Positions 7,798-53,571 of a stretch of DNA of 54,929 nucleotides are shown here, in pieces. Within the stretch, counting starts at the first letter, position 1; the number at the start of each line of letters is the position of its first letter. The stretch spans positions 1 to 54,929 of IMG/VR virus record IMGVR_UViG_3300046383_000025; one strand, given 5' to 3'. The position numbers were made by a program, and so were the translations under genes. Source of the DNA: a virus. Taxonomy: Duplodnaviria > Caudoviricetes. The notes beneath the pieces were generated by a model, which had not been told where the DNA came from, ran no database searches, and saw only the letters and a program-made list of their open reading frames with translations.

Positions 7798-8148
7798 CCG
7801 CTCCGTGACACTTCGAAGCGCCATAGCCGTGAACCACGCCACGCAAGAGCTTGTGCTCGGGCTGATCGACGACCGGACCCGGTCGCTCGTGAACGCCCGC
7901 CAGCTCGCCGTTGCGCAGCTCGGCCGACACCATCCGAACGTCGGCGAGATCTGCGAGCAGCTCGAGCGGCTGGATCGCGCGCGCGCGGAAGTGTCCACCT
8001 ATCGGCCGCGGGCGGCATGACGTGCGAAGTAGTGAGCGCATGGTCGCCGACCCTGTGAGCGCCCCGCAGACGAGGAACGCCGACCCCACCCTAGGTCGAA
8101 TCCTTGCTCGGGGCGCTCGGCCACGGACCACACCACGGAGGTACAGTC

Positions 8149-9873
8149 ATGTCGTTCACCGTCCCGCCCTCGCCCGCTGCTGCTGAGAAACCGCCGCCCA
8201 AGGCTTCGAGCTGGATCGCCGGCGACGTCACCGTCGTCGAGCGCGACGGTCCGCACGTCTACTCGCGCGCGATCCTGATCGCTTTCGCCACCGTCGAGGA
8301 GATGCGCGCCGCGATGCGGCTCGTCGAGCCGATGCTGCAGATCGGGGAGCGCCGATGATCCACTGGGAGTGGCCCGCGCTTCTGTGGGCCGGCGTGAACA
8401 ACGTCGGCCTATGGGCATGCGCCTATGTCTTGCTCAGCGAGCAGCGCCGCAAGTACGACCGCGTCATCTCGGCCGCATGCGTCGCGATGTTCGTGACCTT
8501 CACGATCAATCTGGCGGTGCTGTATGCGAGGCTCCTATGAGCAGCCACACGCGCGGCCGCTGCAAGCCTTGCGAGATCGTTTGGGAATGGCCGCGTGGCG
8601 AGCGCGCGCTGCGCGGCACGAAGTGTCCGCGCTGCTCGCGCCAGCTCGAGCAGACCGCGCAGAACGTCAAGGCGCGCCGTCGGCGCTACCCGATCGAGCG
8701 GGTCGCATGAGCGCCCCCGGCTCGATGTTCTACGCGCTCGGCACGGTCGCCGCCGCGGCGCTCGTGCATCCACACGAGAAGCCGCTGCAGCTTTGGGTCG
8801 TGTACGACAAGCCGCGCGACTATCCGGAGGATCACGTCGCGCGACGTTGGGAGATCCGCGCCGGCTCGACATGCGCGACCGACGAGACCATCGTCGGGCC
8901 GCTCGGCGCCATCCGCCGCCGACTCGCCGACAAGGGCCTGCATGCTCTCAAGCGCGATCCGACGGATGATCCGGTGATCGTGGAGTGCTGGTTATGATCG
9001 AGATCTTCGCGGGCCTCGTGCTCGTCGGCTTCGCCTGCATCATCGTGTGGATCTTCGGCAACGAGCTGAGCACGCCGATCGACTACCGCGTCGAGCGTTG
9101 GTCGCCGAACGTCTACGGCATCAAGTGCGTGCTGCGCTGGCCGTGGGGAACTCGCTGGATCATCGAGACGGCCGGGCCCGGAGATCCCGGCGTCACGTTC
9201 ACGACCCGCTCGCGCGACGAGGCCGAAGGCTTTGCCGCGATCATGCGCGAGGATCTTCATGACGCCGGCGATCGTCGCGATCAAGCGCTTTAAGTGCGTG
9301 TACTACGCCCTCGCGCGCCGCGACGACGGCCGCCTCTATATCTGCGCGCGCAGCGTGGATAGCTTCACTTGGGGAGATAACAACAATGTCCGACCGATAC
9401 GAGCTGCAGCGGCGATCCCGCAATCGCCGCGCAGTGGTGAGACCTGACGAGCCGCCGACCTCGCTGCTCGACTACAAGCGCCGTAAGGATCTGGAGGCGT
9501 ACGAGCGCCGCCGCGCGCAGATCTGCGAGGCGCGGCGGCAGATGCAGCGGCGCGACCCCGGGCCCGGCAGCTCGATGTCGCTCGGCTGGCTGTGCTTCTA
9601 CGTCGCGGCGCTCGGAGCGATGATCGCGCTCGCGGTGCTGAAGTCATGCGCGTGATCCGCAAGCACGACGACTGCCCGGATCACGTGATCGAGAATCGAC
9701 GCGAGCAGCGGCTACCGAATGCCGACTGCAATCGCTGTCTCGTGCTCGCGCTCGCCGAAGCCAATCAGAAGATCGACGAGCTGCAGGCGCGGCTCGGGCG
9801 CCCGCTTGGCCCATGCGCAGCATGTGGCGCCATGCTTGGCGAAGCTCACCTATCGAGTTGTTCGGAGATCTGA
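8149..9873 (+). other. Run of small translationally coupled hypothetical phage genes, several with membrane segments or Cys motifs
   Basis: ORFs at 8149-8358, 8355-8540, 8537-8710, 8707-8997, ~8994-9293, 9386-9655 and ~9646-9873, mostly with overlapping stop/start. Confidence 0.6.
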
Positions 9874-10238
9874 TGTCGCGTAAGAGCAAGCTGACCGATG
9901 CAACGAAGGAACGGATCCGCGATCTCGCGGCGAGCGGCCTCAATCCGCCGGCGATCGCAGCCCTCGTCGACGAGCACCCAAGCACGGTCCAATGGTTCAT
10001 GTACTCCGACGGGATGAGAGCGCCCTCGCAGACCGACGAACCGTCTAGCTACATGCGCAACGGCCGCCGCGTGCATCGGTTCACGCGCGCGGAGGATGCT
10101 TTCATCGAGGCTCGCCGGATCGCCGGCGACGGCTTCCCGGAGATCGCGCGCAAGGCCGCGGCGCGATTCGGCACGGAGCGCAAGCCGCACTCGATCCAAG
10201 TCCGACTCATCATGCTCGCGAACCTGGAGGTCGCATGA
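9873..10238 (+). CDS. HTH DNA-binding protein
   Basis: LTDATKERIRDLAASGLNPPAIAALVDEHPSTVQW; second Myb-like segment FTRAEDAFI. Confidence 0.65.
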   Translation: MSRKSKLTDATKERIRDLAASGLNPPAIAALVDEHPSTVQWFMYSDGMRAPSQTDEPSSYMRNGRRVHRFTRAEDAFIEARRIAGDGFPEIARKAAARFGTERKPHSIQVRLIMLANLEVA

Positions 10239-10631
10239 TTCTCGATGTGCTGCTATTCGCGTTGTTCTTTGCCGGCTTCTGCTATTGCGTCTCGCACAAC
10301 CATGACGACGAGCTGTACGAGCCCGCCGGCGTCGTCTGCTTGATGCTGATGTGTTGGGCCTGGCCGCTCGGGTTCGCCTATTTCATCGCGCTCGTGCTCG
10401 GCGCCGCGATGCTGCTCACGATGGTCATATGAACGAGATACAGATCGAGCAGCTCGTGCCCGGCGGGATCAAGGCAACGGACCATATCCACAAGGGAAGG
10501 AACGACGGCACGTGCTCGCGCTGTCGCAAGATGCCGGCCGAGGACGACGTGCCGCTGATGTTCTGGGCGAAGCAAGGCACCTGGCTGTGGATCTACTGCG
10601 AAAAGTGCCTCGGCGTCGAGCCGGTGCATTG

Positions 10632-11072
10632 ATGCGCGGCCTCACCATACAGCAGCCGTACGCGACGCTCTGCGCGCTCGGCGAGAAGGAGCTCGAGACG
10701 CGGAGCTGGCGCACGAATTACCGCGGCCTCGTCGCGCTGCACTCCTCGGCCGACTTTCCGCCCTGGTGCCGCAAGCTCCTGAACGTCGAGCCGTTCTACT
10801 CGGCGCTGATCCGCGATCGCAAGCGCGTGCCGATGCCGCTCGGCAAGATCCTCGCGATCGGCTTGCTCGTCGATTGCCATCCGGTCACGGAAGATTTCTG
10901 CCGCAATATCTCGCGGACCGAGTACGCGTTCGGCGTCTATCAGACCGGGCGCTTCGCCTTCCGGCTCGAGAACGTGCACATGCTGCGCCATCCGATCGAC
11001 TGGAAAGGGATGCTCGGCTTTTGGCACGTGCCGGCGGACCTTGAGGCGCGCATCGTGCGCGAGGCGGCATGA
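10632..11072 (+). CDS. ASCH-domain protein
   Basis: MRGLTIQQPYATL..LGEK.LETRSW.T.YRG.VALHS...KGMLGFW. Confidence 0.9.
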   Translation: MRGLTIQQPYATLCALGEKELETRSWRTNYRGLVALHSSADFPPWCRKLLNVEPFYSALIRDRKRVPMPLGKILAIGLLVDCHPVTEDFCRNISRTEYAFGVYQTGRFAFRLENVHMLRHPIDWKGMLGFWHVPADLEARIVREAA

Positions 11073-11635
11073 TCGTCCACATCCTCCACAACGGCGCGCC
11101 GCGCTGTCGCTTCTCGGCCGCGGTGCCGCGCGACTGGCCGCCGGAGCACCGCTGGATCTCGCTCGACGACTACCGCGGACCGCCGTCGATCGAACTCGCG
11201 CACGCGGAGCTTTGCGTGAACTGCATCCGCGCGGTCGGGCCTAACCGGCTGCGACGCGAGCGCACGAAGGGATGGCGCACGCCGAAGGGCGCGATCTACG
11301 TCGGCCGCCCGTCGAAGTTCGGCAACCCGTTCATCGACTACAAGCATCCGAAGCGCGCCGATGCATGCGTGTTCTACGTCGCGCGCGCGGGAACCACGGT
11401 GACGCTCGCCTTTCCCGGCGGGCCCGGCACCGATCGGGACTGCGTCTACTATTTCGAGCGGTGGGTCGCCGGCGAGCTCGCGGACGTGCGCGGCATGGTC
11501 GCCGTCACTGACGCGGCGCTGCGGATCCGCAAGTCGATCGAGGAGCTGCGCGGCCGCGATCTGCTCTGCTGGTGCGCGCTCGACAAGCGGTGCCATGCCG
11601 ACGTGCTTCTGCGTCTCGCCAATCAATCGAGGTAA
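11069..11635 (+). CDS. DUF4326 protein
   Basis: RTKGWRTPKGAIYVGRPSKFGNPF...ELRGRDLLCWC....CHADVLLRLAN. Confidence 0.9.
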   Translation: MIVHILHNGAPRCRFSAAVPRDWPPEHRWISLDDYRGPPSIELAHAELCVNCIRAVGPNRLRRERTKGWRTPKGAIYVGRPSKFGNPFIDYKHPKRADACVFYVARAGTTVTLAFPGGPGTDRDCVYYFERWVAGELADVRGMVAVTDAALRIRKSIEELRGRDLLCWCALDKRCHADVLLRLANQSR

Positions 11636-11637
11636 TC

Positions 11638-12525
11638 ATGACGAAGATCCGAACCGACGAGGGCGCGCTCGGCCGCACGCTTCAGACAAAGCGCGCCAAG
11701 ATCAAAGACGACGATACGTGCGTCTGCGAGACGCGCCTGCAGATGCCGGTCAAGCGCGAGGAATTCGCCACGCTCGCGGGCCTTCCGCCCGAAGTCATCG
11801 AGACGCTCTACACGGAGGAGGGCGCGCCGATCGCGAACCTCGAGATCCGCGTCGAGAAGCGCGAGCTGTCCGTGAACGGCAAATGCTGGCGCGGCGAGGG
11901 CAAGCACGCGGCGGAACTCAAGCTCAAGAAGGCGATCGCGAGCGTGCTGCGATTCAAGCTCGAGCCGTCCGGCGCGATATTCATCTGCACGGTGCGATGG
12001 CGGGCCGCCGGCGACGAGGTCGAGGACGTCAAGGATCTGCTCGGCCAATGGTGCTCGCTCGATCTGTCGCTCATGTTCGTCCAGGGCCAGCAAGAGAAGC
12101 TCGACCTGGGCGGCGGCAGCACGAAGCACACGACCACGACGCTGACGGTCGTCGATGCGCCCGTGCATACCGAATGCTGCGGCGTCACGCGCGAGACCTG
12201 TCTCGCCGGCGTCGCCGCGGGCGAGGCGAAGTGCTGCGAGAAGTGCGTGCACGAGCGGCCGCTGCGCCCCGACGAGGATCTGCCCGCCGGCGTGCCGCCG
12301 ATCCGCAAGCTCGCCCCGTCGGATCAAGAGCCCGCCACGACGCGGCTGCGCGAGCGCGTGAACGCTCTCGGCCTCGGCTACGCGGTCCCAGACGGGCCGC
12401 GCGTGTGGTTCGCTTTCTCGCCCGCGGAGCTGCAGAAGATCATTCGGTTCTGCGACCGGCGCGAGAACGGCGAGACGCCGAACCCCCCGGCTTCACTGAA
12501 GCAGTTTAAGCAGAAGAAGGAATAG
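11638..12525 (+). CDS. Hypothetical protein with an internal Cys cluster
   Basis: Start MTKIRT after GAGG; HTECC...C...CCEKC.H. Confidence 0.6.
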   Translation: MTKIRTDEGALGRTLQTKRAKIKDDDTCVCETRLQMPVKREEFATLAGLPPEVIETLYTEEGAPIANLEIRVEKRELSVNGKCWRGEGKHAAELKLKKAIASVLRFKLEPSGAIFICTVRWRAAGDEVEDVKDLLGQWCSLDLSLMFVQGQQEKLDLGGGSTKHTTTTLTVVDAPVHTECCGVTRETCLAGVAAGEAKCCEKCVHERPLRPDEDLPAGVPPIRKLAPSDQEPATTRLRERVNALGLGYAVPDGPRVWFAFSPAELQKIIRFCDRRENGETPNPPASLKQFKQKKE

Positions 12526-12527
12526 AC

Positions 12528-12845
12528 GTGCTGCAGCTTTGGCGAAACGTCGGCGAGCGCATCATGATCGGCGACGACGTCGTGCTGACGCTGGTCTCGA
12601 ACACGAACGGTGTCGAGGCGCGCGTGCAGATCCAGGCGCCACAGATCGCCGACGGCCCGCGCATCGCGCGCGTCGCCTTGCGCGAGCCCTACCGCCTCAC
12701 CGCCGAGATCTCGTTCACGCTCGATCCCATCGAGCGCACCGGCGCCCGCTTCCACATCAAAGCGCCTCGCGAGGTTCAGATCTACCGCGAGGAGATCTAC
12801 AACGAAAAACTACAGGAGCGCGGCATTGACCCCCACAACCGTTGA
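12528..12845 (+). CDS. csrA: CsrA/RsmA-family translational regulator, tandem two-domain form
   Basis: Unit 1 MLQLWRNVGERIMIGDDVVLTLV...ARVQIQAP; unit 2 ...EISFTL...ARFHIKAPREVQIYREEIY. Confidence 0.85.
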   Translation: MLQLWRNVGERIMIGDDVVLTLVSNTNGVEARVQIQAPQIADGPRIARVALREPYRLTAEISFTLDPIERTGARFHIKAPREVQIYREEIYNEKLQERGIDPHNR

Positions 12846-14256
12846 GCTTGGCTATGCGGTCGGCACTGGCGAGCGCGTCGAGATCCCGATCCGACACATG
12901 GTGGTCACCGGGCAGACGCAAGAGGCCGGCAAGACGACGACACTAGAGGCGCTGATCGAGCGCGCGGCGATCCCCGCGATCGCATTCCTGACGAAGCGCG
13001 GCGAGCGCGCCTTCGGCGAAGGCCGCCGGATCCCGCCGTACTTCCGGGAGAAAGCCGATTGGCAGTTCGTCAGCTCGGTGCTGGAGTCGATCCTGCTCGA
13101 GCGCATGAAGTTCGAGCGCGCCTGGATCATGCGCGTGACCAAGGCCGCCAAGACCCTCGCCGACGTGCTGCGCAACTGCAAAGAGCAACGCAAGCAAGCG
13201 CGACGCGGCATCGACGAGAGCATGTACATGCAGCTCGAAGCGTACCTCGAGATCATCGTGCCGCGCGTCGCGCGCGTGCAGTGGGCCAAGACCGTTGACC
13301 TGCAGCCCGGGCTCAACATCTGCGACCTGAGCAACCGCGACACATTCCCGCCGGAGCTGCAGGGCCTCGTGATGCGCTCGGTCATCGAGTGGATCTACGA
13401 GCATGCGACCGCGGCGATCACGATCATCCCGGAGGCTTGGGAATTCGTGCCGCAGTCGCGCGGCTCTCCAGTCAAGCTCGCGGCCGTCGAGCTGATCCGC
13501 AAGGGCGCGGGCCTCGGCAATTACGTTTGGCTCGACAGCCAAGACATCGGTGGCGTCGACAAAGAGATCTTACGGTCGTGCCCGGTGTGGCTGCTCGGCG
13601 TGCAGCGCGAGACCAATGAGATCAAGCGCGTGCTCGACAACATCCCCGCCGGCGTCAAGAAGCCGCGGCCGGCCGATGTCTCGATGCTGAAGAAGGGCGA
13701 ATTCTTCGCGTGCTTCGGCGAGCACACGATCCGGACATACGTCCGGCCGAAGTGGATGGACGCGGACGAGGCGCACGAGATCGCATGCGGCTACAAGATG
13801 GCCCGGCCGCCGCCGGCGCCGATCATTCGCGCCGACGATCCCTGGCCGCCCGACGTCGGCGTGCAGATGATCGAGGAGGAGCTGCGCGCGAAGATCCGCG
13901 CCGACGTGCTCGCAGAACACAAAAGCGAGCTGACGGCGGCCGAGGAGCATGGCCGGCTGAAGGGATTCGAGCAGGGTTACGCCGCGGCCGCGGCCGCGAT
14001 CACCGGCAAGGTGACCGGCGTCGTCAAGACGGGCGAGGCCTTCGTCGAGGAGTTGCGCGCGCTCGCGCGAGATCTCGCCGCGCGCGCGGCCGTATCCGCT
14101 AACACGCTCGAGATTGCCCCGCCCGGGCCCGGCCGATTCCGCTATGCCGCGGACCCGGAGCGGATCGGCTCCACGCCGGAACACCACGACAACGCCGCCG
14201 GGCAGCCAAAGCTCGATCGCATCATCCATCTGCTCGAAACACGGAGAACGCTGTGA
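12826..14256 (+). CDS. HerA/FtsK-like (DUF87-type) P-loop ATPase
   Basis: TTG start after AGGAG; HMVVTGQTQEAGKTT Walker A; IIIPEAWEFVPQ Walker B; IRKG..LG..VWLDSQ. Confidence 0.8.
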   Translation: MTPTTVELGYAVGTGERVEIPIRHMVVTGQTQEAGKTTTLEALIERAAIPAIAFLTKRGERAFGEGRRIPPYFREKADWQFVSSVLESILLERMKFERAWIMRVTKAAKTLADVLRNCKEQRKQARRGIDESMYMQLEAYLEIIVPRVARVQWAKTVDLQPGLNICDLSNRDTFPPELQGLVMRSVIEWIYEHATAAITIIPEAWEFVPQSRGSPVKLAAVELIRKGAGLGNYVWLDSQDIGGVDKEILRSCPVWLLGVQRETNEIKRVLDNIPAGVKKPRPADVSMLKKGEFFACFGEHTIRTYVRPKWMDADEAHEIACGYKMARPPPAPIIRADDPWPPDVGVQMIEEELRAKIRADVLAEHKSELTAAEEHGRLKGFEQGYAAAAAAITGKVTGVVKTGEAFVEELRALARDLAARAAVSANTLEIAPPGPGRFRYAADPERIGSTPEHHDNAAGQPKLDRIIHLLETRRTL

Positions 14257-14666
14257 GCGAAGAAAAACTCGACCGGATCCTCGCGCTACTCGAAGGCCTC
14301 GACGAGGAGCAGCTCTACCAGCGCGTCAAGGCCCGGCTCGCGGAGGAGGCGCCCGCGCTGCTGAAGGTGCTCACCGTCACGCCGCAGATCCAGCTCGAAG
14401 AAAAGTTCGAGACGATCGAGGTTGACGGCAAGACGCCGAAAGGCCGGGTCGCGCGCCTGATCCTCGATGGCTGGTTCGACACGCCGAAGAATGCGAACAA
14501 GGCGACCGAGGAGATCAATCGCCGCGGCGGCGCGCTCGTCGCCGCGCGCGTATACGAGGCATGCGATGCGCTCGTCGCGCTCGGTTTCCTCTACAAGCAA
14601 AAGCTCGCGAACCGCAGCTATGCCTACGTCGTCGTCGAAGGCATGAAGGCGAACGTGCGCGCATGA
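14253..14666 (+). CDS. Winged-helix-like protein coupled to the ATPase
   Basis: GTGA overlap; KGRVARLI.DGWFD.P....EI.RRG...LV.LGFL. Confidence 0.55.
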   Translation: MSEEKLDRILALLEGLDEEQLYQRVKARLAEEAPALLKVLTVTPQIQLEEKFETIEVDGKTPKGRVARLILDGWFDTPKNANKATEEINRRGGALVAARVYEACDALVALGFLYKQKLANRSYAYVVVEGMKANVRA

Positions 14667-14945
14667 TCGGCTCGCGACAATGAAGCCCGCTTATTTCAAA
14701 ACGTGCCGATGCGGGCAGCGAATCGTGATACTAAATACGAAGCGCGGTAAGCGGCTCGCCGTCAACGTGGAGCCCAAAGGCCACGAGGCATACCGATACC
14801 GCGGCGTCGCGCGAGTCGAGCAAATGTACGAGTGGGGGCAGCATCAGCCGCACCTGCTGACGTGCACGAAGCCATACGACAAGGCGACGCAAAATAGAAA
14901 GAAGTTCGTCTAGGCTCGTCCAACAAAACCACGGAGGTTAGTCCC

Positions 14946-16463
14946 ATGTCCCAAGAACACCGCGAAATTCTACTCGCGCAGCTCAAGCCCTCGGCCACGG
15001 AGGCGCAAGCCATGCGCCGCAAGCAATTCGACAAAGGCGCGCTGCGCGAGCTGGCCGACTCGATCAAGCTCTCCGGCGTCGTGCAGCCGATCGTCGTGCG
15101 CGAGATCCCGACGGCCGGCAAATCGCCCGGGCACTACGAGATCGTCGCCGGCGAGCGCCGCGTGCTCGCGGCCGGCATCGCCGGACTCGAGCGCATCCCT
15201 GCGATCGTGAGGGAGCTCGACGACCAGGGCGTCGCGCAGATCCAGCTCATCGAGAATCTGCAGCGCGAAGGCCTCGCGCCGATGCACGAGGCTACCAGCT
15301 ACCACGAGTTGATCGAGGAGCACGGCCTCAAGCATGAGGACGTCGCCGCGCGCATCGGCAAGTCGCTGCGCTACGTCTACATGCGATTGAAGCTGCTCGC
15401 GCTCGCCCCGCCCGTGCGCAAGCTGCTCGCGGATGGAGTGATCGAGGTCAGCATCGCGGAGCGAATCGCGCGGATCCCGACGCATGCGCTGCAGCTCGAA
15501 GCGGTGCGCGACATGGAAAGCCGCGGCATGACGGTCAAGGAAGCCGAGGCGCACATCGCCAAGAACTACATGACCAAGCTCTCGACGGCGCACTTTCCGA
15601 CCGCGGACGCGACGCTCAAGGGCGGCCCCTGCGGCACGTGCCCGAAGCGGACCGGCAATCAGTCGCAACTATTCGCCGACGTCGGCGACGACGAGATCTG
15701 CACGGACTCGAAGTGCTTCACTGACAAGACGCGCGAGCACGGCGGCCGGCAGATCGCCGCGGCGAAGGCCAAGGGTCAAAAGACGATCGCCGGCGCCGAG
15801 GCGAAGAAGATCGCGGCCTACGGCTTTCGGTACAACGATCACGTCGGCCCCTACTATCTGCTCACCGCGAAGCCCTACTTCAGCGGCGCCGGCGAGACGC
15901 CGGTCAGGCAGATCCTGAAGGAAGGCGCGGAGATCGTGCTGTTCCAGGATCCGGAGACAGGCCGCGCGCGCGAGGTCGTGCACGAGAGCCACATCAAGAA
16001 GCCGAAGGTCTCGCACTCGATCGACCGCTATCAGAGCCAGCAGCGAGCGAACGCCAAGCGCGCGAAGTACGAGAGCGCCGTGCGGCGCCGGATCTTCGAC
16101 GAGGTCCGACCGAAGCTGAAGCCGCCGACGCTGCGCCAGCTCGCGGAGATCTGCGCCGACGCCCTCGACTACGAGGCGCGCGAGATCCTGCACAAGATCG
16201 AGAACCCGGACTCGAAAAAAGGCTCGATCTACGTCGGCGACTGGATCAAGAAGTACGTGGCCGGGCTGAAGGGCGACAAGGCGCTGCAGCAGTTCATCTC
16301 GATGACCTACGTTCTCGACGAGGTCCACGTGAACAGCTACTCGCTGAGCCGGAAGATCCCGCGCCTCGAAGCCGCCGCGAAAGCCGCCGGCGTCAGCGTC
16401 AAGAAGATCCGCGCGGAGCTGAAGCCCAAGCCGAAGAAAAAGGCCAAGGGAAAACGCAAGTGA
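14946..16463 (+). CDS. ParB/RepB/Spo0J-family protein (long, PRTRC-ParB-like)
   Basis: RKQFD..ALRELADSIK..GVVQPIVVR...YEIVAGERR..A...ENLQRE.L; C..CPKRTG...C.D..CF. Confidence 0.9.
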   Translation: MSQEHREILLAQLKPSATEAQAMRRKQFDKGALRELADSIKLSGVVQPIVVREIPTAGKSPGHYEIVAGERRVLAAGIAGLERIPAIVRELDDQGVAQIQLIENLQREGLAPMHEATSYHELIEEHGLKHEDVAARIGKSLRYVYMRLKLLALAPPVRKLLADGVIEVSIAERIARIPTHALQLEAVRDMESRGMTVKEAEAHIAKNYMTKLSTAHFPTADATLKGGPCGTCPKRTGNQSQLFADVGDDEICTDSKCFTDKTREHGGRQIAAAKAKGQKTIAGAEAKKIAAYGFRYNDHVGPYYLLTAKPYFSGAGETPVRQILKEGAEIVLFQDPETGRAREVVHESHIKKPKVSHSIDRYQSQQRANAKRAKYESAVRRRIFDEVRPKLKPPTLRQLAEICADALDYEAREILHKIENPDSKKGSIYVGDWIKKYVAGLKGDKALQQFISMTYVLDEVHVNSYSLSRKIPRLEAAAKAAGVSVKKIRAELKPKPKKKAKGKRK

Positions 16464-16725
16464 AGCGCAGCGCGGAGGAGATCGCCGCGACGCACGCGCT
16501 GCGCGAGGCTATCAATCGAATCGAGGAGGAGCTGCGCAACATGCGCCGCGTCGTCTACGCGACCGTGCTCGCGGCCGGAACGCTCGTCGGCGGCGGCGGA
16601 TGCGAGGTCCGCATCCGCCGTGACATCCTCGTGAACCTCGACGATCGCGGCGTGCTCGAGCAGGATCGAGATCCCGCGACCGGCGACATCATCATGCGCG
16701 CCCTACCGCCGCCACCGAAGGAGAC

Positions 16726-17322
16726 TTGATGGGCACCGTCGCAAGCATCGGCCTCGACTGGCTCGTGCAGTCGCATCGCCTCGACACGTTCGTCGAGAGC
16801 GGCACGGGCCACGGGCACAACCTGATCCGCGCGCTGCAGTGGCCGCAGCTCACCGCATTGCACTCGATCGAGATCGACTATCCGACGCATCACCGCGCCG
16901 CGGTCACGTTCTCGAATGAGCCGCGGGTCAAGCTGTATCACGGCGACTCCTCGCAGATCCTCGGCGCGATCGCGAGCGAGCTCTCGCCGCAGCGGCGCGT
17001 GCTGTGGTATCTCGATGCTCACTTCGCCGGCAGCGGCCGGATAGAACCGCTCGCAATGGTGGTCGATCGAGATCCGCGCGAGCTGGTGCCGCTGCAGCGC
17101 GAGGTCGTCGGTCTGCGCGGCCGCCGAGATCTCGCCGGCGACGTCGTCATCGTCGACGATCTCTGTCTATTCGAGGTCGGCCCGTATGAAACCGACGCGC
17201 CGCAGCTCCGCGAGCAGCTCGGCCTGCAGTCGCTCGGCTGGCTCGATCATCTGTTCTCGCGGACGCACGAGATCTCGAGACTCACGCGCGACGGCGGCTA
17301 CTGGGTCGCGAGGCCACGATGA
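16726..17322 (+). CDS. Class I SAM-dependent methyltransferase
   Basis: TFVESGTGHG, HSIEID, YHGDS, WYLDAH, VVIVDD. Confidence 0.75.
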   Translation: MMGTVASIGLDWLVQSHRLDTFVESGTGHGHNLIRALQWPQLTALHSIEIDYPTHHRAAVTFSNEPRVKLYHGDSSQILGAIASELSPQRRVLWYLDAHFAGSGRIEPLAMVVDRDPRELVPLQREVVGLRGRRDLAGDVVIVDDLCLFEVGPYETDAPQLREQLGLQSLGWLDHLFSRTHEISRLTRDGGYWVARPR

Positions 17323-18418
17323 ACAAGACGACGCCGGCCACGACACACGGCTGCAATTTTCCGGGCTGCGATCGGCAGATTCGCCGCGAGCATTGGGCGT
17401 GCGACGCGCATTGGTGGGTGATTCCGCTGTCGCAGCGCAATCGACTGTCGCGCGCGTGGCAAGCATTGAAAGCCGTGCGCACGGCAACGGCGGCGGCGCC
17501 GGCGGTCGCGCGCGCGGCGATCGCCGAATACCGCGCGGCCGAGGCCGACATCATCAAGTTCGCCAAAGGGGGCAAGAGTGCAAGTCGATAACCGGATCCT
17601 CGCGCGCATGCGAGAGCTCTCGATCTACCAGCGCGCCGGGCTGATCTCCTCTTACACGCGATTCGATAACGGGCAGATCGACGAGCTGCACATCAATCGC
17701 GATATCCAAACGCTGACGGCGTTCATCGACGCGACTGGCGAAGGCCTGCCCGACGACATCTGCCGCGAGTGTCTCTGTCAGACGTACGGACCGGGCGACG
17801 TCGGCGGCCACAACTGGGGATGCTCGAAGAACCCGCCCGACTCGTACAAGGCGCGCCCGCCGCTGATGAAGAAGAAGCGCAAGCGCCGCTGATGTACTGC
17901 ACGAAAATGAAAATCGGCGCGACGACGGCGATCGTCTGCCACGGCGGCCGGCGGCCGCGCGAGCAGCTCTGCCTTTGCGGAAAGCCGGCGACGCGCCTAT
18001 GCGACTGGATCATCGCGAAGCGCGGGAAGCGCATCGTGCGTTGCTCGGCGCCGATGTGCGACGGCTGCTCGATCCGGCCAGCTCCCGAAAAAGATCTCTG
18101 CCCGACGCACGGCGCAGAATGGAACAAGCGCGCGAGCAACCCAGACCGCGAGGCGGCGACATGATGTGCGAGATCTGCGGCTGCACTGATGACGCGGCCT
18201 GCGTCGATCCGGTCACGCGCCGGCCCTGCGCGTGGATCGCCGAGGGCCTCTGCAGCGCGTGCGAGTTTGCGCCGCTCGCTTGGTCGGCTCCGGAGCTGCC
18301 GCGGCCGCTCGCCCCGCCCATCCTCCTCGACATAGGCCCCCGCGGCGCCTGGCGGCTCCGCGCCTTGACGGCCGCCGAGGCCGCCCATATCGCCAGCCTT
18401 CCGCCGGGCAGCCTATAA
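17319..18418 (+). other. Four small Cys-rich (zinc-finger-like) phage genes: 17319-17591, 17578-17892, 17892-18164, 18161-18418
   Basis: HGCNFPGC...ACDAHW; CREC...HNWGC; CLCG..ATRLCD...C.AP.C..C...LCP.H; CEICGCTDDAAC...LCSAC. Confidence 0.6.
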
Positions 18419-18478
18419 GCGGTTTTACGCCGGCCCTGGACCCCGCGAGTTTCCTAGGCCCCCCGGCTTTTTTGCTGG

Positions 18479-18523
18479 AAATGTGAACTAGGTCCCACCT
18501 ATAGGGGGGGATCGGCCTATACT
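18479..18523 (+). promoter_or_regulatory. CRP-family box plus -10 (class II promoter P1)
   Basis: AAATGTGA-ACTAGG-TCCCA centred 18489.5; TATACT at 18518 (site at about -40.5). Confidence 0.7.
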
Positions 18524-18583
18524 TCCTCCCATGCCCGGCGAGATGCCGCGGCGAGAACCAGGAACCACGGAGGACCTAGGACC

Positions 18584-19150
18584 ATGACCAAGACGAAATT
18601 CCCGCGCTGGATTCCCCAAGGTGCCGAAGCGATCACGCGCGAAGGCGTGAACGCGGTGTGCTACCTGTACGCCTCGCGCAGCTCGCGCCCCGCGGTGCTG
18701 ATGTATGGCGGCAACCGATCGAAGGCGGACAGCCACTACAGCTACCGCAGCGAGCAGGAAGCCCGCGACGCGGCCTCGCGCTACCTTGACGGCCAAGCGG
18801 CGAGCGCCGTCTACAAGGCCGAGCAGCGCGTCGCGCGCAACCGTCCGCACACGCTCGCGGTCGGCTCGATTCTCGCGTGCTCGTGGGGATACGACCAGAC
18901 GAACGTCGATTTCTACGAGGTCGTCGAGCTGCACGGCGCCGCGTTCCTTTCGGTCCGCAAGATCGCGCAGAAGGTCGTCGAGAACCAGCAGAGCAGCGAG
19001 CGCGTCGTCGCCTGCCCGGGCCAGTACTGCGGCGAGCCGATGCGCAAGCGCGCGACGGCCGGCAACGCGATCCGGATCGCCGACTACGCCAGCGCCTACG
19101 AGTGGGACGGCAAGCCGAAGCATCAGACCGCGTTCGGGTGGGGCCACTAG
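18584..19150 (+). CDS. Conserved-looking phage hypothetical protein
   Basis: Strong SD; VGSIL..SWGYDQTNVDFYEVV motif. Confidence 0.75.
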   Translation: MTKTKFPRWIPQGAEAITREGVNAVCYLYASRSSRPAVLMYGGNRSKADSHYSYRSEQEARDAASRYLDGQAASAVYKAEQRVARNRPHTLAVGSILACSWGYDQTNVDFYEVVELHGAAFLSVRKIAQKVVENQQSSERVVACPGQYCGEPMRKRATAGNAIRIADYASAYEWDGKPKHQTAFGWGH

Positions 19151-19190
19151 GCCCCGCCCTCTCTCTCACCACACCACGGAGGTCACTGCC

Positions 19191-19409
19191 ATGTCGCTCA
19201 ATCCGAACCAAGCCCGCGCCCTTGCTCTCGTCGTCGAGGCCGTCGTCGAGGCCGTCAAAGCGGCCGGTCCGAACGGCGCGCCCGGCGGCACGCTCTACGC
19301 GGCGCTGATGTCGCAAGGCTGCACGCTGAGCCAGTTCGAGAGCCTGATGGGCGCGCTCGTGCGCCTCGGCAAAGTTCGCCGCGAGGGCGAGCTGTACTTC
19401 GCCGCCTGA
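19191..19409 (+). CDS. Small winged-helix-like protein
   Basis: GAPGGTLYAALM..GCTLSQFE.LM.ALV..G.V. Confidence 0.65.
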   Translation: MSLNPNQARALALVVEAVVEAVKAAGPNGAPGGTLYAALMSQGCTLSQFESLMGALVRLGKVRREGELYFAA

Positions 19410-19440
19410 ACCACCACCACACGCCACGGAGGCCAAGACC

Positions 19441-19956
19441 ATGAACGACCTTTTTTCAAACTACCGCCCGGAGCCCGCACGTGCTCCGATCCCGCAGCCG
19501 CCGCCCGCGCCGCGCGCGTCGGTCGGGCTGCCGAGCGTCGCCGGCGTCGTCGAGCTGCTCGCGCACGCTGCCGAGCACGGCCTGAAGTACCCGAAGCTGC
19601 GCCTGCAGCTCGCCGACGGCACACCGCTGCGGATTCACGTCGCCGGCGAGCGGAGCCGCACCCCCGGCTACTTGATGCTGACGGACGGCGGGAAGTATCC
19701 GGACAATCTGTACTTCGGCCGGATCTCGCCCGCGGGCGATCTCGAGATCGGCCGCGACGGCCACCAGCGTCGCGAGCAGCTCGTCGCGCTGCTCGAGCGC
19801 CTCGCCGCGGAGCCGGCGAAGGTCGCCGCGGAGTACGGCAAGCTGACCGGCAACTGCTGCTTCTGCAAGCTCACGCTGACCGATGCGCGCTCGACGGCCG
19901 TCGGCTACGGCCCGATCTGCGCTGGCAAGTTCGGCCTACCCTGGGGGGCGCCATGA
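19441..19956 (+). CDS. DUF6011-domain protein
   Basis: YGKLTGNCCFC..TLTD.RS..VGYGPICA. Confidence 0.8.
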   Translation: MNDLFSNYRPEPARAPIPQPPPAPRASVGLPSVAGVVELLAHAAEHGLKYPKLRLQLADGTPLRIHVAGERSRTPGYLMLTDGGKYPDNLYFGRISPAGDLEIGRDGHQRREQLVALLERLAAEPAKVAAEYGKLTGNCCFCKLTLTDARSTAVGYGPICAGKFGLPWGAP

Positions 19957-20312
19957 GCGCCCCCGTTCTGCTGCGGCTCCTCGATCTCGTCGGCACGTCC
20001 CCGAACCTGCGATGCGACCTGCGCACGCGCGACGTGCAAGGCGGGCTGATCTATAGCCACGAGGATGAATGCGCCGACGTCGGCACGCTGGAGCGGGTGT
20101 GGATTCGCGACAAGCGCGACGCTCGCCGCTCTCAGCGCTGGCTCTGCTGGACCTTCCGCCGCGACCTGCCGCGCCGCCAGCGCTCGACGGTGTCGGACTA
20201 CTCCGCGCTGCTGATCGAGGAGAACGGCCGCAACGTAGTGACGGAGCTGTCGCACGATCCCTACCTGCTGGCGCTGGAGGCGCCCGGCTCCTCGTGGGTC
20301 GCGATCCGGTAA
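19953..20312 (+). CDS. Hypothetical protein
   Basis: ATGA-coupled to the DUF6011 gene; ends at the next promoter. Confidence 0.55.
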   Translation: MSAPVLLRLLDLVGTSPNLRCDLRTRDVQGGLIYSHEDECADVGTLERVWIRDKRDARRSQRWLCWTFRRDLPRRQRSTVSDYSALLIEENGRNVVTELSHDPYLLALEAPGSSWVAIR

Positions 20313-20356
20313 ATGCGACCTGGATCACAGTACGCCCGGGCCCGCCCGGGCATACT
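20311..20356 (+). promoter_or_regulatory. CRP-family box plus -10 (class II promoter P2)
   Basis: AAATGCGA-CCTGGA-TCACA centred 20321.5; CATACT at 20351 (site at -41.5). Confidence 0.8.
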
Positions 20357-20414
20357 CTCTCCCATGCCCGGCGCACGCCGCGGCGACACCAGGAACCACG
20401 GAGGACCTAGGACC

Positions 20415-20729
20415 ATGCAGAACCCCATCGAGAAAGGCACGCTCGTTCGGATCACGACGGCGAACGGCGGCGACACTGTCGCCTACCTCGTCGAGACGTA
20501 CCGCCCGACCTACGGCGTGCACCTGGAGCGCAACGGCCGCCCGTTCTACGTCGAGGCCTCGCGCCTGCGCTCGATCGCGATCGCGATCGACGACGACGAC
20601 GTCATGCGCACCTGCGAGGCGCTGCGCGCGTGCGGCATGTCGCCGCTCGACCGCGAGCTCTGGGCCGAGGAACACGGCCGCCACTACTCCGCGGGCGCTA
20701 AGCGCCGGCTATTCGGGGCGCGGTCATGA
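20415..20729 (+). CDS. Hypothetical protein
   Basis: Start MQNPIE after GGAGG in the repeated leader. Confidence 0.65.
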   Translation: MQNPIEKGTLVRITTANGGDTVAYLVETYRPTYGVHLERNGRPFYVEASRLRSIAIAIDDDDVMRTCEALRACGMSPLDRELWAEEHGRHYSAGAKRRLFGARS

Positions 20730-20930
20730 GCCGCGCGATCGCCGACACCTTCGCGGGCGAGCTTTGGAGGCGGTGACCCGCTGGATCCACCGCGCGGCCG
20801 TCGTCGTGCTGGCCGCGTGGGTGATCCTCGTCGCCTATCAGGTCGGCCGCGCGGTCGGCCGCGAGGAAGGCGCCCGCGAGGCCGACCGGGTCTGCTACTG
20901 CGGCCGCCGGTGATTAAGTGAAATTGCCGG

Positions 20931-20976
20931 AAATGCGAACTGGATCACGCCCGCGCGCGCGGGCCCGGCGCATACT
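20931..20976 (+). promoter_or_regulatory. CRP-family box plus -10 (class II promoter P3)
   Basis: AAATGCGA-ACTGGA-TCACG centred 20941.5; CATACT at 20971 (site at -41.5). Confidence 0.8.
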
Positions 20977-21032
20977 CTCTCCCATGCCCGGGCGATACCG
21001 CCCGCGGCGATACCAGCCGAGGAGGCTAGGAA

Positions 21033-21611: not shown

Positions 21612-21639
21612 CACCAGCCACACCACGGAGGTCCCTGCC

Positions 21640-24443: not shown

Positions 24444-24450
24444 ATCCCCC

Positions 24451-39389: not shown

Positions 39390-39427
39390 CCGATCTCCTC
39401 TGCTTTGATAGCGGCTGCGCTTCAGCC

Positions 39428-40135: not shown

Positions 40136-40935
40136 AGGCTCCCGGTGTGTAGCCACTTGAAGATAGACCTACTCGCATCGGGCGGCTCGATCCTGTTCAC
40201 GATCTTCGTCTGCCCGGCAAAATCGCAGCGCGTCGGATTCGACGCGCCGTCATAGATCGTCACCTGCGGCACGCCGAGAAACCCGGCGAGCACCATGATC
40301 CCGTTCTCGAGCCCGATGTACGCGCGCGCGCTCGCGAGCAATCTAATGACCTCGCGCGCGGGCGCGCCCAAGTAATGCGCGCTCGCGGCGGGAAGGGCGC
40401 TGTCCACGCTCGCGCCGATCTGCACGATCTTGACGCCGCGCTGCGCGAGCGAGCTCGCGAGCTGGCGCATGTTGTCGAGCCCCCACTCTTTCCGCATCCG
40501 CCGCCGCCGCTTGCCATGCGCGATCATCACCACGTGATCGCCGCGCTCGATGCCCTCGGCCATCGGGAAGCGTGGATAGACGCCCGGCTCGTAGTGGATA
40601 CCCAAGCCGGTCTGATCGTTCAGATGCTCGACGGTGCTCGCGATGTACAGCTCCGGCGGCCATTTCCGATACACGAGCGAGTCGCGCGTCGCGGTCGTGC
40701 CGGGCGGGCCATGCCCGGAGCTGTAGTGCACATCGCTGAGCGCATAGAGCTCCGGCACGATCGGCGGGAGAGTGCCTTGCGTCACGCTGCGAAAGTCCAC
40801 GTAACACGGCAGATCCGGCCGCTGGCGATTCACGTACTTGAGCACGGCGAGACAGAACAGCCAATCGCCGATCCCGTTATACGGTCGAGTCAGCGTCAGA
40901 CTTGGGCGGTCGCCGGCGACTGCTTGGGCAAGCAT
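40132..40935 (-). CDS. GT9-like glycosyltransferase
   Basis: GIGDWL...KEW...L...GV.IVQIG...L..A..YIG.ENG.M.LA...GVP.VTIY. Confidence 0.78.
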   Translation of the reverse strand: MLAQAVAGDRPSLTLTRPYNGIGDWLFCLAVLKYVNRQRPDLPCYVDFRSVTQGTLPPIVPELYALSDVHYSSGHGPPGTTATRDSLVYRKWPPELYIASTVEHLNDQTGLGIHYEPGVYPRFPMAEGIERGDHVVMIAHGKRRRRMRKEWGLDNMRQLASSLAQRGVKIVQIGASVDSALPAASAHYLGAPAREVIRLLASARAYIGLENGIMVLAGFLGVPQVTIYDGASNPTRCDFAGQTKIVNRIEPPDASRSIFKWLHTGSL

Positions 40936-44418: not shown

Positions 44419-45426
44419 TTAGGCGGCTAACGAGATCTCGAGATCCTCACGCTCCAGACGTTCACGATGCGCGCGCGCGGCGGTCACGCTCGGCGGCTCG
44501 CCATGCACCACGGTCGGAACGCCGAAGGCTTGGACGTTTGCGAAACCAGCGGCCGCAAGCGTATGCGCCGGCGGGCGCTTTGGAAAGCGCCGCGGCATCG
44601 CGCGCAGCATTGGCGCCTCGATCGCCGGCGTCTGCTCGGTGATCGTCGGCAACCCGAAGGCCTGCTCATTGGCGAAGCCGTCCGGCCGGATGAATTGCAC
44701 GACGACGTCGCCCACGACCGGGAGGCCGAAGGCGCTTTCGTTCGCGACGCCGTCGGGCGCGATCGTCGCATTGAGCGCAACGGTGCCGAAGGCATTGGCG
44801 CTTGCGACGCCGTCGGGCCCGACGTTGGCGTTGAGCGCGACGGTGCCAAGCGCGCTCGTGTTCGCGACGCCGTCGGGCGCGATCGTCGAGTTGAGCGCGA
44901 CGGTGCCGAACGCGATCGAGCTTGCGATGCCGTCCGGCGCTAACTGCGCATGCAGCTCGGGATCGCCGAAAGCGGAGACGTTCGCGACGCCATCGGGCCC
45001 GACGTTCGCGTTGAGTCCGACCGTGCCAAGCGCGCTGACGTTCGCGACGCCGTCGGGCGCGATCGTTGCGTTGAGCGCGACGGTGCCGAAGGCGTTGCCG
45101 CTCGCAATCCCATCCGGCGCGATGTTGGCATTGAGCGCGACCGTGCCAAGCGCGCTCGTGTTCGCGAAGCCCGCGGGCGCGATCGTCGCATTGAGTGCAA
45201 CGGTGCCAAGCGCATTGACGTTCGCGACGCCGTCGGGCGCGATCCTCGCATTGAGCGCGACCGTGCCAAGCGCGCTGACGTTCGTGAGAGGCGTCGGTGC
45301 GATGTTGGCATTGAGCGCGACCGTGCCAAGCGCGCTCGTGTTCGCGAAGCCCGCGGGCTGGATCGGGATCGTCTGCGATCGACGAGCAGCAATCGGTGTC
45401 GCCGCTATCGGGGCCGCGCCAATCAC
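44419..45426 (-). CDS. 20-aa tandem-repeat virion protein
   Basis: About 11 copies of IAPDGVAN.SA(L/F)GTVALNA(N/T) plus 2 degenerate copies. Confidence 0.8.
   Translation of the reverse strand: MIGAAPIAATPIAARRSQTIPIQPAGFANTSALGTVALNANIAPTPLTNVSALGTVALNARIAPDGVANVNALGTVALNATIAPAGFANTSALGTVALNANIAPDGIASGNAFGTVALNATIAPDGVANVSALGTVGLNANVGPDGVANVSAFGDPELHAQLAPDGIASSIAFGTVALNSTIAPDGVANTSALGTVALNANVGPDGVASANAFGTVALNATIAPDGVANESAFGLPVVGDVVVQFIRPDGFANEQAFGLPTITEQTPAIEAPMLRAMPRRFPKRPPAHTLAAAGFANVQAFGVPTVVHGEPPSVTAARAHRERLEREDLEISLAA
44721..45363. repeat. 60-bp coding tandem repeat, about 10.7 units
   Basis: Consecutive 60-nt lines align: gatNNNNgcNttgagcgcgacNgtgccNaNNgcN...gcgacgccgtcgggcgc. Confidence 0.97.
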
Positions 45427-47742: not shown

Positions 47743-47745
47743 CGG

Positions 47746-49874: not shown

Positions 49875-49886
49875 CGCGCGCCCCTC

Positions 49887-52485: not shown

Positions 52486-52524
52486 TCAGCGCACCACGAA
52501 ACAACAACCGCCTAAAAATCTCTG

Positions 52525-52590: not shown

Positions 52591-52610
52591 AAAGCCGCGC
52601 CGCGCTTGGC

Positions 52611-53360
52611 TTAGCGCGCACTGGCTAACGCCCTTCGCAAAGCATTGGGCCATGCGAGCACGAAACGTCTGCGCAGCTCATCGCGTGCGAGTTGAGGGAA
52701 ATCAAATCGCTTCTGATACGTGGGCAATGGAACGAACAAGAGCACTGGCTTGATGTTGCGCAGCCCTGGCCCATAGCGCTCATAGACACCACGGGGCAGG
52801 CCTTCTCCAGCTCGAGACACGAGGAAATATTTCCTGCGATTCTTTTTCGCGCTGCGACGCTTGGACGCATCGGTTTGATTGGCGCTGAAGCCCTCCTCCC
52901 CGAACGCACGTATCTGCGAGAGGATCTGCACGATGATGCGAGCAGGCACGTTGCCATAGCGATCGAGCTTGACCGCAGCAGGCACGTAGCCCTCGTTCGC
53001 CGTGAGAATGCGAGCACGCTGCAGCACACGCTCGCCACGCTTGGCCTTGCGTCTGCCCCCTGCTATCTGATGGGCAAGGTAGTCCGTTGGGGGAGTGCCC
53101 TTGGACGCATCGCCACTGAGAAAGACTTCGGCAGCGGGACTCAGCTTATTGCCCTTTCGATAGCCGACACCGCGCACCGTGAACGGCGTCGGCCGATCGA
53201 ATATCAAAGGGAGGGCAGCTCGCAGCGTGCCCATCGTCTCGAATGCGGCCGTATTGGCCGCGAGCGATCTCGCGAAAGGGAGCTGCAGGCGCTCAAGGCG
53301 GCTGAGCTTCTCCTCGAAGTTCTTGGTCTCGACGATCACATCAAACGTCGCCACGGCCAT
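52611..53360 (-). CDS. Neck / tail completion (gpZ-like) protein
   Basis: QLPFA.S.A.N..A...FDRPTPFT...YL..QI.GG.R..K..E...LD.YGN...LP.GVY.R...PVL.FV....Y..RFDF. Confidence 0.75.
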   Translation of the reverse strand: MAVATFDVIVETKNFEEKLSRLERLQLPFARSLAANTAAFETMGTLRAALPLIFDRPTPFTVRGVGYRKGNKLSPAAEVFLSGDASKGTPPTDYLAHQIAGGRRKAKRGERVLQRARILTANEGYVPAAVKLDRYGNVPARIIVQILSQIRAFGEEGFSANQTDASKRRSAKKNRRKYFLVSRAGEGLPRGVYERYGPGLRNIKPVLLFVPLPTYQKRFDFPQLARDELRRRFVLAWPNALRRALASAR

Positions 53361-53446
53361 TCCTCCCCCGGAAATCCCCGCGCCACTCCACGCCGCCGGG
53401 CCAATGGTGGCGCGGCTCCGGGCCTCGCGCCTCGGCTTTTCCCCGG

Positions 53447-53523
53447 AAATGCGACGTAGCGCACGAAAAAAGGCGGCAATTATGTCGCGAAGTCGTACAT
53501 GGCGGGCCGTTCACGACTACACT
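53447..53523 (+). promoter_or_regulatory. Degenerate CRP-family box (P5), possibly class I
   Basis: GGAAATGCGA-CGTAGC-GCACG centred 53457.5 with the same upstream ggcttt tract as P1/P4; candidate -10 TACACT at 53518 (about -72.5). Confidence 0.45.
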
Positions 53524-53571
53524 TGCTCCCGTCCTTAGCACTATTCGACACACACCACGGAGGTCTGTCAC

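Follow-up and report, generated by a model that had tools for sequence, protein, structure and literature searches.

An exact nine-nucleotide motif recurs at the ribosome-binding sites of early genes in a phage genome that also encodes a CsrA-like protein

We analysed a short sequence, CCACGGAGG, that recurs just upstream of early genes in a soil phage, the virus record IMGVR_UViG_3300046383_000025 (Duplodnaviria; Caudoviricetes). The window, meaning the whole stretch of DNA analysed, is the complete record of 54,929 bp, with 66.9% G+C and a 127-bp direct terminal repeat. Genes were called with our own codon-usage script, which yields 79 genes and is not a curated annotation. In this model, a repressor-like gene on the - strand (7285-7641) is followed by a rightward early region on the + strand (8149 to 23131), a leftward block of lysis, tail, head and terminase genes (23128 to ~51900), a minor-tail-like gene (52611-53354) and a beta-clamp-like gene on the + strand (53572-54702). 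The head and terminase genes are lambda-like, and the tail module is of the Rcc01698/phiJL001 type. The original prediction had described eight ACGGA-loop mini-hairpins over Shine-Dalgarno sequences in this genome and had read them as the regulon of a phage CsrA protein. Our analysis establishes CCACGGAGG as a real and statistically striking start-associated motif; the CsrA mechanism is plausible, but the comparative tests that we ran do not support it.

The exact motif occurs nine times in the window, always on the + strand and never on the - strand, against an expectation of 0.44 from 100 dinucleotide shuffles, none of which reached nine copies (largest count 3). All nine copies precede ATG starts, with 7-10 nucleotides (nt) between the last G and the ATG. 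Counted from the A of ACGGA, this equals the 14-17 nt given previously; a randomly chosen position would be followed by an ATG at this distance with a probability of 0.043. Eight of the nine mark the starts of early genes without translational coupling. When up to one mismatch to the motif is allowed, there are 15 matches where 17.1 are expected, and only six of these are one-mismatch variants; because such variants are at chance level, the motif is all-or-none. Among early genes, 8 of 35 have it at their ribosome site, and among late genes none of 31, which supports the claim that it overlaps the Shine-Dalgarno sequences of a defined set of early + strand genes. At all nine sites GGA lies within ACGGA and overlaps a GGAGG Shine-Dalgarno context. 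The looser pattern A-N-GGA is likewise commoner at the ribosome sites of early genes (13/35 versus 2/31 late genes, P = 0.003), but once the eight motif genes are removed the enrichment is no longer significant (5/27 versus 2/31, P = 0.23). The eight motif genes are preceded by gaps of 28-419 nt in our gene model, a real intergenic distance that makes an initiation event of their own necessary; genes of these operons whose start overlaps the stop codon before them have a weak GGAGG or none, and no copy of the motif.

The nine sites, all on the + strand, fall in several contexts. Site 1 (8133-8141) lies 7 nt before the ATG at 8149, which opens the first gene of the rightward early operon (69 amino acids (aa), function unknown). 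An upstream half-copy on the same strand, CCACGGA (8121-8127), starts 12 nt before it and gives this leader a second ACGGA (8123-8127). Site 2 (14929-14937), with flanks that could form AACC/GGTT, precedes by 8 nt the ATG at 14946 of a ParB-like gene of 505 aa. Site 4 (18565-18573) is separated by 10 nt from the ATG at 18584 of a 188-aa protein (phrog_37844), and site 7 (20396-20404), in a nearly identical leader, by 10 nt from the ATG at 20415 (104 aa); both have AGGA on either side, so that the extra GGA motifs reported earlier for these leaders and for that of site 1 are all present. The remaining sites have 8-nt spacers: site 5 (19174-19182; ATG 19191, 72 aa), site 6 (19424-19432; ATG 19441, a 171-aa DUF6011 protein, flanks GCC/GGC), site 8 (21623-21631; ATG 21640, 121 aa) and site 9 (53555-53563; ATG 53572, the 376-aa protein with a DNA polymerase III beta-clamp domain). 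These eight are where the original prediction had placed them, each an exact copy of the motif. The variant AGCC-GAGGA-GGCT (AGCCGAGGAGGCT) that it reported ahead of radC is also there, at 21015-21027 on the + strand before the ATG at 21033. Two looser members on the same strand are the CACGGAG ribosome site at 14241-14246, before the gene with a GTG start at 14253, and the ACGGAG ribosome site at 22626-22631, before the gene at 22641.

Site 3 (14995-15003), which the earlier account lacked, lies inside the ParB gene, 66 nt from site 2 and 8 nt before an in-frame ATG at 15012 (codon 23). The first 22 residues of ParB are conserved among 19 homologues, with L10, S16, T18 and Q21 nearly invariant, so that the first ATG (14946) is real. 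The internal site suggests either a second, shorter isoform or a paired copy of a regulatory site. Among leftward genes, the only near-variant of CCACGGAGG is at 3582-3604 on the - strand, where the ribosome site of gene 2904-3581 reads GCGA-CGGAGG-TCGC, a 4-bp inverted repeat enclosing the Shine-Dalgarno sequence.

The leaders in which the motif sits are rich in C and A: C makes up 40%, A 33%, G 18% and T 9% of the 15 nt upstream of CCACGGAGG (73% C+A), in a genome of 66.9% G+C. ACA occurs within 8 nt upstream at six of the nine sites, in a C/A-rich tract that adjoins the Shine-Dalgarno sequence. The position immediately after the motif is T at five of nine sites (GGAGGT), and GGAGGU lengthens the complementarity to the 3' end of 16S rRNA. 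By inspection, CCAC itself is not complementary to the 16S rRNA 3' tail, and extra pairing of that kind was rejected. Some leaders are related to one another. A 33-nt repeat family spans the motif, the ATG and a Ser codon; its members at 19169 (site 5) and 21618 (site 8) are 94% identical, and those at 14924 and 53550 show 70-73% identity. ATG-TCS opens five of the eight motif genes. Beyond about 5 nt, the flanks of the nine exact copies are unrelated in at least six contexts.

Four of these leaders, those of sites 4, 7 and 9 and of the radC variant, come after copies of a promoter-like repeat. Its five copies (18470-18540 on the + strand, 20306-20366, 20926-20986, 24393-24453 and 53433-53465) consist of a CRP/FNR-like box, GGAAATGYGA-N6-YCRCR, then a -10-like hexamer (CATACT, TATACT or TACACT) and then CTCCCATG. 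A sigma-70 promoter scan of the window found none, and terminator-like sites in the window are at chance level. The ATG within CTCCCATG has different surroundings at different copies. At 24451 it coincides with a predicted gene start, which suggests a leaderless message or one with a very short leader. In the leader of gene 18584 (18531-18587), the conserved repeat ATG opens an 18-codon upstream frame whose TGA overlaps the main ATG (ATGA), and in that of gene 20415 (20364-20417) it is in frame with the gene and would add 17 residues; CCACGGAGG falls inside both of these frames.

The hairpins themselves stood up less well than the sites. Written as CACGGAGG, the motif does put its GGA where a loop could form across the Shine-Dalgarno sequence, in agreement with the published preference of CsrA for GGA in loops (PMC4347634 and PMC7366521), but the stem, of 2-4 bp, is marginal. 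The CC/GG stem alone is calculated at +0.9 kcal/mol, and with flanking pairs at -0.8 (ACC/GGU), -1.7 (AACC/GGUU) and -2.5 kcal/mol (GCC/GGC); the 4-bp stem of the radC variant, at -4.9 kcal/mol, is the most stable. When 79-nt leaders are folded, the minimum-energy structure includes the mini-hairpin in five of nine cases, and the pairing probability of the mini-hairpin runs from 0.00 to 0.93. In the leader at 18565, the Shine-Dalgarno sequence folds instead onto CCUCC near the 5' end, and at 19174 it pairs instead with coding sequence. The closing pairs were earlier said to covary. Their flanks are as described (ACC/GGT four times, AACC/GGTT and GCC/GGC), but covariation overstates the case: the CC/GG core pairs are invariant and therefore carry no information on structure. 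The -1/+1 pair is complementary at seven of nine sites (permutation P = 0.028), or in six of seven independent flank contexts (P = 0.048), and the -2/+2 pair at 14929 only. This -1/+1 pairing is suggestive, but two G-C cases underlie it, of which one falls within coding sequence, and the T at +1 is explained equally well by pairing with rRNA. An operator acting at the DNA level, for ParB for example, was also considered and rejected: the motif has no symmetry and keeps both to one strand and to its spacing from the ATG.

A candidate trans-acting factor is encoded in the same early region. The gene at 12528-12845 (+ strand, GTG start), 2 kb upstream of ParB, specifies a 105-aa protein that matches the CsrA family PF02599 in two stretches (E = 8.7e-16; 58.1 bits against a cut-off of 27) and carries the PHROG label 'CsrA-like regulator'. 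Residues 2-38 align to CsrA strands beta1-beta4 and residues 72-94 to beta4-beta5 and the helix, including R-E-E-I-Y. The RNA-contact segments beta1 (MLQLWR) and beta5/helix (REVQIYREEIY) align to solved CsrA/RsmE structures, and the alignments to 7yr6 and 1vpz retain LxLxR (L2, L4, R6) and R-E-E-I-Y. In E. coli numbering, the RNA-contact residues of CsrA are L2, L4 and R6 together with R44, E46 and I47. The claim that the phage encodes a CsrA-family protein is therefore well founded, although at 105 aa, with about 40 extra residues and an internal partial repeat, the product differs from a typical CsrA subunit, which has ~60 aa and forms a symmetric homodimer with two RNA sites. The AlphaFold model, in which one chain forms eight strands and one helix, is confident (mean predicted local distance difference test score, pLDDT, 92.7); solved CsrA chains superpose on ~53 columns, about half of the model, at a root-mean-square deviation of ~1 Å. 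The protein looks like a fusion, within one chain, of a truncated CsrA repeat (beta1-beta4) with a complete one, and it probably keeps one RNA-binding face. An exhaustive profile-free search among 1.84 billion representatives returned 42 proteins at E <= 0.001, many of them ~100 aa long and sharing this architecture, as a long-form subfamily. In an alignment of 24 of the 42, L2, R6, G15, A79, P80, R87 and E89 are invariant or nearly so, and the conserved columns are confined to the N-terminal strand and the C-terminal strand and helix.

Close relatives of the phage were sought in several collections, and none closer than ~50% ParB identity was found in the searches made. A megablast of INPHARED with positions 18000-23000 and a tblastn search with the CsrA-like protein gave no match, and single-protein queries of IMG/VR with ParB or the beta clamp returned none. 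With gene 18584, IMG/VR yielded 80 loci, at no more than 53% identity over the best segment and no more than 42% for matches covering most of the protein; with a ParB alignment it yielded 80 loci at up to 46% identity, of which L123, L138, L153 and L165 have a ribosome-site-like motif. A smaller CsrA alignment (A2) gave three weak loci in IMG/VR and, in a scan of JGI metagenomes, 80 loci that were kept, at no more than 32% identity for matches covering most of the protein; these JGI loci hold five single motif matches in 483 kb. Scanning GTDB genomes with ParB gave 80 loci (at most 48% identity over the best segment, at most 41% for matches covering most of ParB), 11 of which have single motif matches, 10 on the ParB strand, and a ribosome-site-like one at L188 only.

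Several results bear on the host. Most ParB relatives come from Burkholderiales and gammaproteobacterial assemblies. When 396 Burkholderiaceae genomes were searched at the DNA level, the only matches were short, of ~70% identity, and in ParB and RadC; one genome in this tally (G625) is flagged as unpublished and underlies no claim here. Prophages in 11 of the 396 have capsids with 44-47% identity to that of the window; among the 11 is Paraburkholderia xenovorans LB400, whose prophage has a ParB homologue as well. Burkholderiaceae prophages are the nearest kin. In five Burkholderiaceae prophage early regions, which share two or three genes with the window, we found neither a CsrA-like gene nor a copy of the motif. 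PF02599 is absent from three of three betaproteobacterial genomes and present in two others, labelled Gammaproteobacteria and Proteobacteria, and a survey reports CsrA in only two betaproteobacterial species (PMC7366521). The suggestion that host RsmA might act on these sites is consequently doubtful: if the host is a member of the Burkholderiales, it is unlikely to have an RsmA, which would leave the phage protein as the sole actor.

The motif was then followed into other phages. Scanning a collection for CACACCACGGAGGT gave 80 loci, most of which have a single match. Three complete genomes of ~76 kb (G001-G003, corresponding to loci L018, L033 and L088; 99-100% complete) stood out with five or six copies of CCACGGAGG each, four of which per genome are clustered on one strand of an early-looking arm in the arrangement (CA)n-CCACGGAGG(t)-5 to 8 nt-ATG. 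These are Cluster L mycobacteriophages, and L033 is 100% identical to Krypton555, in which two sites lie upstream of annotated genes 136 and 138. In Krypton555, too, the motif is all-or-none, with five exact copies and 22 one-mismatch copies against 17 for a control pattern. None of the three genomes has a PF02599/CsrA match, and we found no protein shared between the Cluster L loci and the window. A 66-nt cassette query matched only four Cluster L records, over 18 nt. Recurrence in unrelated phages thereby joins position, spacing, strand and restriction to early genes among the observed properties of the motif. As an observation on Cluster L itself, the clustered leaders lie downstream of a repeated element (CACGGCGTGTAAC...; NC_053505.1, 72022-74971); the site at 72022-72030 is inside annotated gene 134 and that at 74963-74971 stands before an unannotated reading frame, which suggests that the start or gene calls at 72022 and 74963 are worth revisiting.

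ParB relatives and Burkholderia phages were compared as well. Among 160 loci around ParB homologues, we found no multi-copy motif linked to ribosome sites. Four ParB loci have a CsrA-like gene near ParB, all distant from the window; two of them (L126 and L195) are apparently one contig, so these represent three distinct contigs, and all three have ordinary, varied ribosome sites and no repeated motif. The csrA-positive phage Bcep22 has A-N-GGA at 22 of 71 starts and frequent CACCAC leaders, and BcepMu, which has no match to our CsrA hidden Markov model, has A-N-GGA at 10 of 48 starts, ACGGAG at 4 of 48, and CCACCACGGAG ahead of a tail gene. Since A-N-GGA and CA-rich leaders are thus common in Burkholderia phages regardless of csrA, the loose motif is ordinary for such phages; the letter-perfect nine-fold repeat is peculiar to the window genome and Cluster L. 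The expectation that the motif would travel with csrA therefore fails in the phages compared, all of them distant from the window: it is repeated in three csrA-less mycobacteriophages and not in three csrA-positive relatives. The outcome that the original prediction had named as speaking against it, a motif equally at home without csrA, is partly realised, in Cluster L and, for ACGGAG, in BcepMu. Separately, in Bcep22 (L451, NC_005262), CACACCACGGACG lies immediately ahead of the terminase gene start (25065-25094), and several genes of this phage have a CAAGGAGAGAGGA-type ribosome site in common.

Of the phenomena already described, the nearest is the start-associated sequence that Cluster K mycobacteriophages carry (Pope et al. 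2011, PMC3203893); its function is given there as unknown, with a host or phage factor suggested. On that description, the two motifs have much in common: each is short and asymmetric, includes the Shine-Dalgarno core, lies a few nt before starts in one orientation, is restricted to non-structural genes, prefers ATG (9/9 in the window) and deviates little from its consensus. They differ in sequence, the Cluster K motif being the 13-mer GGGATAGGAGCCC and ours the 9-mer CCACGGAGG, and in the phylum of the host; moreover, the 'extended' Cluster K form described there has 17-bp inverted repeats without counterpart in the window, and the window phage, unlike the Cluster K case, encodes a candidate RNA-binding protein. 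The Cluster K sequence is also conserved across related phages, often ahead of genes from different families; for the window, the relatives at hand for this comparison share no more than ~50% ParB identity. As the common features listed above agree but sequence and phage group do not, we regard the window motif as an analogue of the Cluster K sequence and not as a member of its family. In Cluster L (Krypton555, Whirlwind, Snenia and Lolly9), the 9-mer is identical, with up to 18 nt identical to the window, and the copies are again clustered on one strand, at 5-8 nt from the ATG as against 7-10 nt in the window; these phages are unrelated to the window phage, infect an actinobacterial host and lack csrA. 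We found no published description of the Cluster L motif in the open-access literature.

Two further bodies of work concern the parts of the motif. Targets of CsrA, RsmA and RsmE prefer GGA in a loop and over ribosome-binding sites, and in vitro selection (SELEX, systematic evolution of ligands by exponential enrichment) gave the consensus RUACARGGAUGU with ACA and GGA fully conserved (PMC4347634 and, for the targets, PMC7366521). The window motif shares with such targets a GGA in a potential C-G-closed loop overlapping the Shine-Dalgarno sequence, CA before N-GGA, and several GGA motifs in some leaders. Against the selected consensus, GGA and CA..G(U) match, ACA is CCA and two 5' positions differ, so that the consensus as such is not reproduced; other departures are the stem of only 2-4 bp, the invariance of a base that is variable in CsrA targets, and the presence of the motif in phages without CsrA. 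A looser form of the CsrA target, CANGGANG, is known along with the hcnA hairpin, and the window motif matches CANGGANG. The C/A-rich tract has its own parallel: ACA motifs just 5' of the Shine-Dalgarno sequence are experimentally established translation enhancers in enteric bacteria (Yang, Figueroa-Bossi and Bossi 2014, PMC3879156), and six of the nine leaders have ACA in the corresponding place. The published enhancers tolerate varied position and sequence, whereas the window reuses one exact 9-mer.

Weighing these data, we lean, at about even confidence, to reading CCACGGAGG as a ribosome-binding cassette associated with starts, in which a C/A-rich leader and GGAGG(U) together provide independent initiation on early genes. 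Its 3' part, GGAGG, would serve as a canonical Shine-Dalgarno sequence 7-10 nt before the ATG that can pair with the 3' end of 16S rRNA, and its 5' part, CCAC, would close a C/A-rich, G/T-poor tract that may act as an enhancer. Such a cassette would need no dedicated factor and would let early or 'moron-like' genes initiate independently and at a high level; its exact repetition would reflect either copying or strong optimisation of one good solution. We favour this factor-free reading on account of the position, the spacing, the C/A-rich context, the association with genes that follow a gap and, above all, the recurrence in csrA-less phages. Several facts weigh against it. A generic enhancer does not predict letter-perfect conservation in nine exact copies across at least six flank contexts, and the invariance of CCAC together with its absence from late genes is what an operator would show: late genes with a GGAGG use GGGAGG and never CCAC, which makes the motif class-specific and operator-like. 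The leaders are not uniformly unstructured: in the predicted folds, most of the GGAGG is paired at 19174 and 18565, where the probability of being unpaired does not exceed 0.12, and much of it at 14995, where that probability is 0.00-0.59. The phage has a CsrA-family gene whose preferred type of target matches the motif, and the argument from Cluster L assumes that Mycobacterium, which is not known to have CsrA, lacks it. One version of the copying idea would dispense with selection on CCAC altogether, cassettes of ribosome site, ATG and first codon having spread recently among 'moron-like' genes. The 33-nt repeat family, the near-identical leaders of genes 18584 and 20415 and the shared ATG-TCS starts all fit, but at least six sites have unrelated flanks and none has drifted by one base, and the internal ParB copy lies within conserved coding sequence; we think it improbable that copying is the whole explanation.

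The main competitor to the factor-free cassette is an operator for the phage CsrA-like protein, which would bind ACGGA on the CC/GG mini-stem, block the 30S subunit and lower early gene expression over the course of infection, being made from the early operon and acting in the manner of RegA. T4 RegA is a phage translational repressor that binds the initiation regions of many early mRNAs; it would be a functional analogue from an unrelated protein family. We hold this reading to be possible but on balance unlikely. It is favoured by the CsrA-family gene itself with its retained RNA-contact residues and confident model, by a GGA that could be looped out across the Shine-Dalgarno sequence, by the exactness of the motif and its early restriction, by the additional GGA motifs in three of nine leaders (8133, 18565 and 20396) and the paired copies in ParB, and by the -1/+1 flank pairing. 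The likely host clade also appears to lack CsrA, so that the phage protein could be the sole member of its family in the cell. The stem, however, is weak and is the minimum-energy structure in only five of nine leaders; the N of A-N-GGA is invariant here, though CsrA recognition does not require it; five of nine sites have a single GGA; the early/late contrast in A-N-GGA disappears without the eight motif genes; and an Rfam scan of the window returned no family, whether a CsrB/Rsm-type decoy RNA or any other. To this are added the csrA-less mycobacteriophages that repeat the identical motif and the three csrA-positive ParB relatives that do not. Of the earlier claim of CsrA control, the early gene set, the CsrA gene and the GGA over the Shine-Dalgarno sequence are supported, the hairpin and the covariation are weak, and the co-occurrence with csrA is not borne out in the phages compared. 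Some other trans-acting factor, be it a protein from host or phage or a GcvB-type small RNA rich in G/U, as proposed for Cluster K, would suit an exact, asymmetric motif in a single orientation that fits the description in PMC3203893 point by point, and small RNAs are known to target C/A-rich elements ahead of ribosome sites (PMC3879156). We nevertheless give it little credence: a search of the phage for an antisense or G/U-rich partner RNA found no stretch complementary to the motif beyond the opposite strand of the sites themselves, the absence of Rfam matches applies here as well, and besides the CsrA-like protein no candidate was recognised among the 79 predicted proteins. The cassette and the CsrA operator are not mutually exclusive, as a strong ribosome site that doubles as a CsrA site is typical of known targets. 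The operator reading could extend to a self-contained circuit, in which a single-chain CsrA-like protein, probably with one RNA-binding face, recognises the invariant CCACGGAGG and shuts off nine early starts as it accumulates in a host without a CsrA of its own; we offer it as a speculative possibility, slightly less likely still than the operator itself.

Start-associated motifs of phages have been known since 2011 without a mechanism, and the window supplies a second, independent example, in a phage of proteobacterial type. Because a plausible RNA-binding partner is encoded in the same genome, the question can be tested with a few RNAs and one small protein. Genes for CsrA occur in about 1% of phages (30 of 2,517; PMC7366521), and one knock-down phenotype is reported (PMC11879866). 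The role of phage csrA genes in the life cycle is essentially untested, and our searches of the open-access literature brought up no cis-regulon described for a phage CsrA. If the link between motif and protein is true, the early genes described here would be the first defined target set and cis-regulon of a phage CsrA, and the circuit would be a CsrA-based analogue of T4 RegA. If it fails, the shared CA-rich CCACGGAGG(U) leader would point to a widely usable strong ribosome-binding design suited to high-G+C systems, here phages of Actinobacteria and of a high-G+C Gram-negative host.

Three further features of the genome lie outside the motif-bearing genes. Between the early and late blocks, a small + strand island (24820-25350) encodes a 176-aa protein with a partial GGDEF (diguanylate cyclase) domain. 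Within the head-tail module, two glycosyltransferase family 9-like genes and a methyltransferase gene (38559-40935, - strand) sit between the head-tail attachment gene and the capsid genes. In the structural region, a - strand gene at 44419-45426 contains tandem repeats with a 60-nt period (44665-45407), in which a repeat finder delimits nine overlapping copies at 60-nt spacing; the encoded protein matches no Pfam family, and its repeats make up about a dozen 20-residue units with a consensus near GTVALNAxIAPDGVANxSAx.

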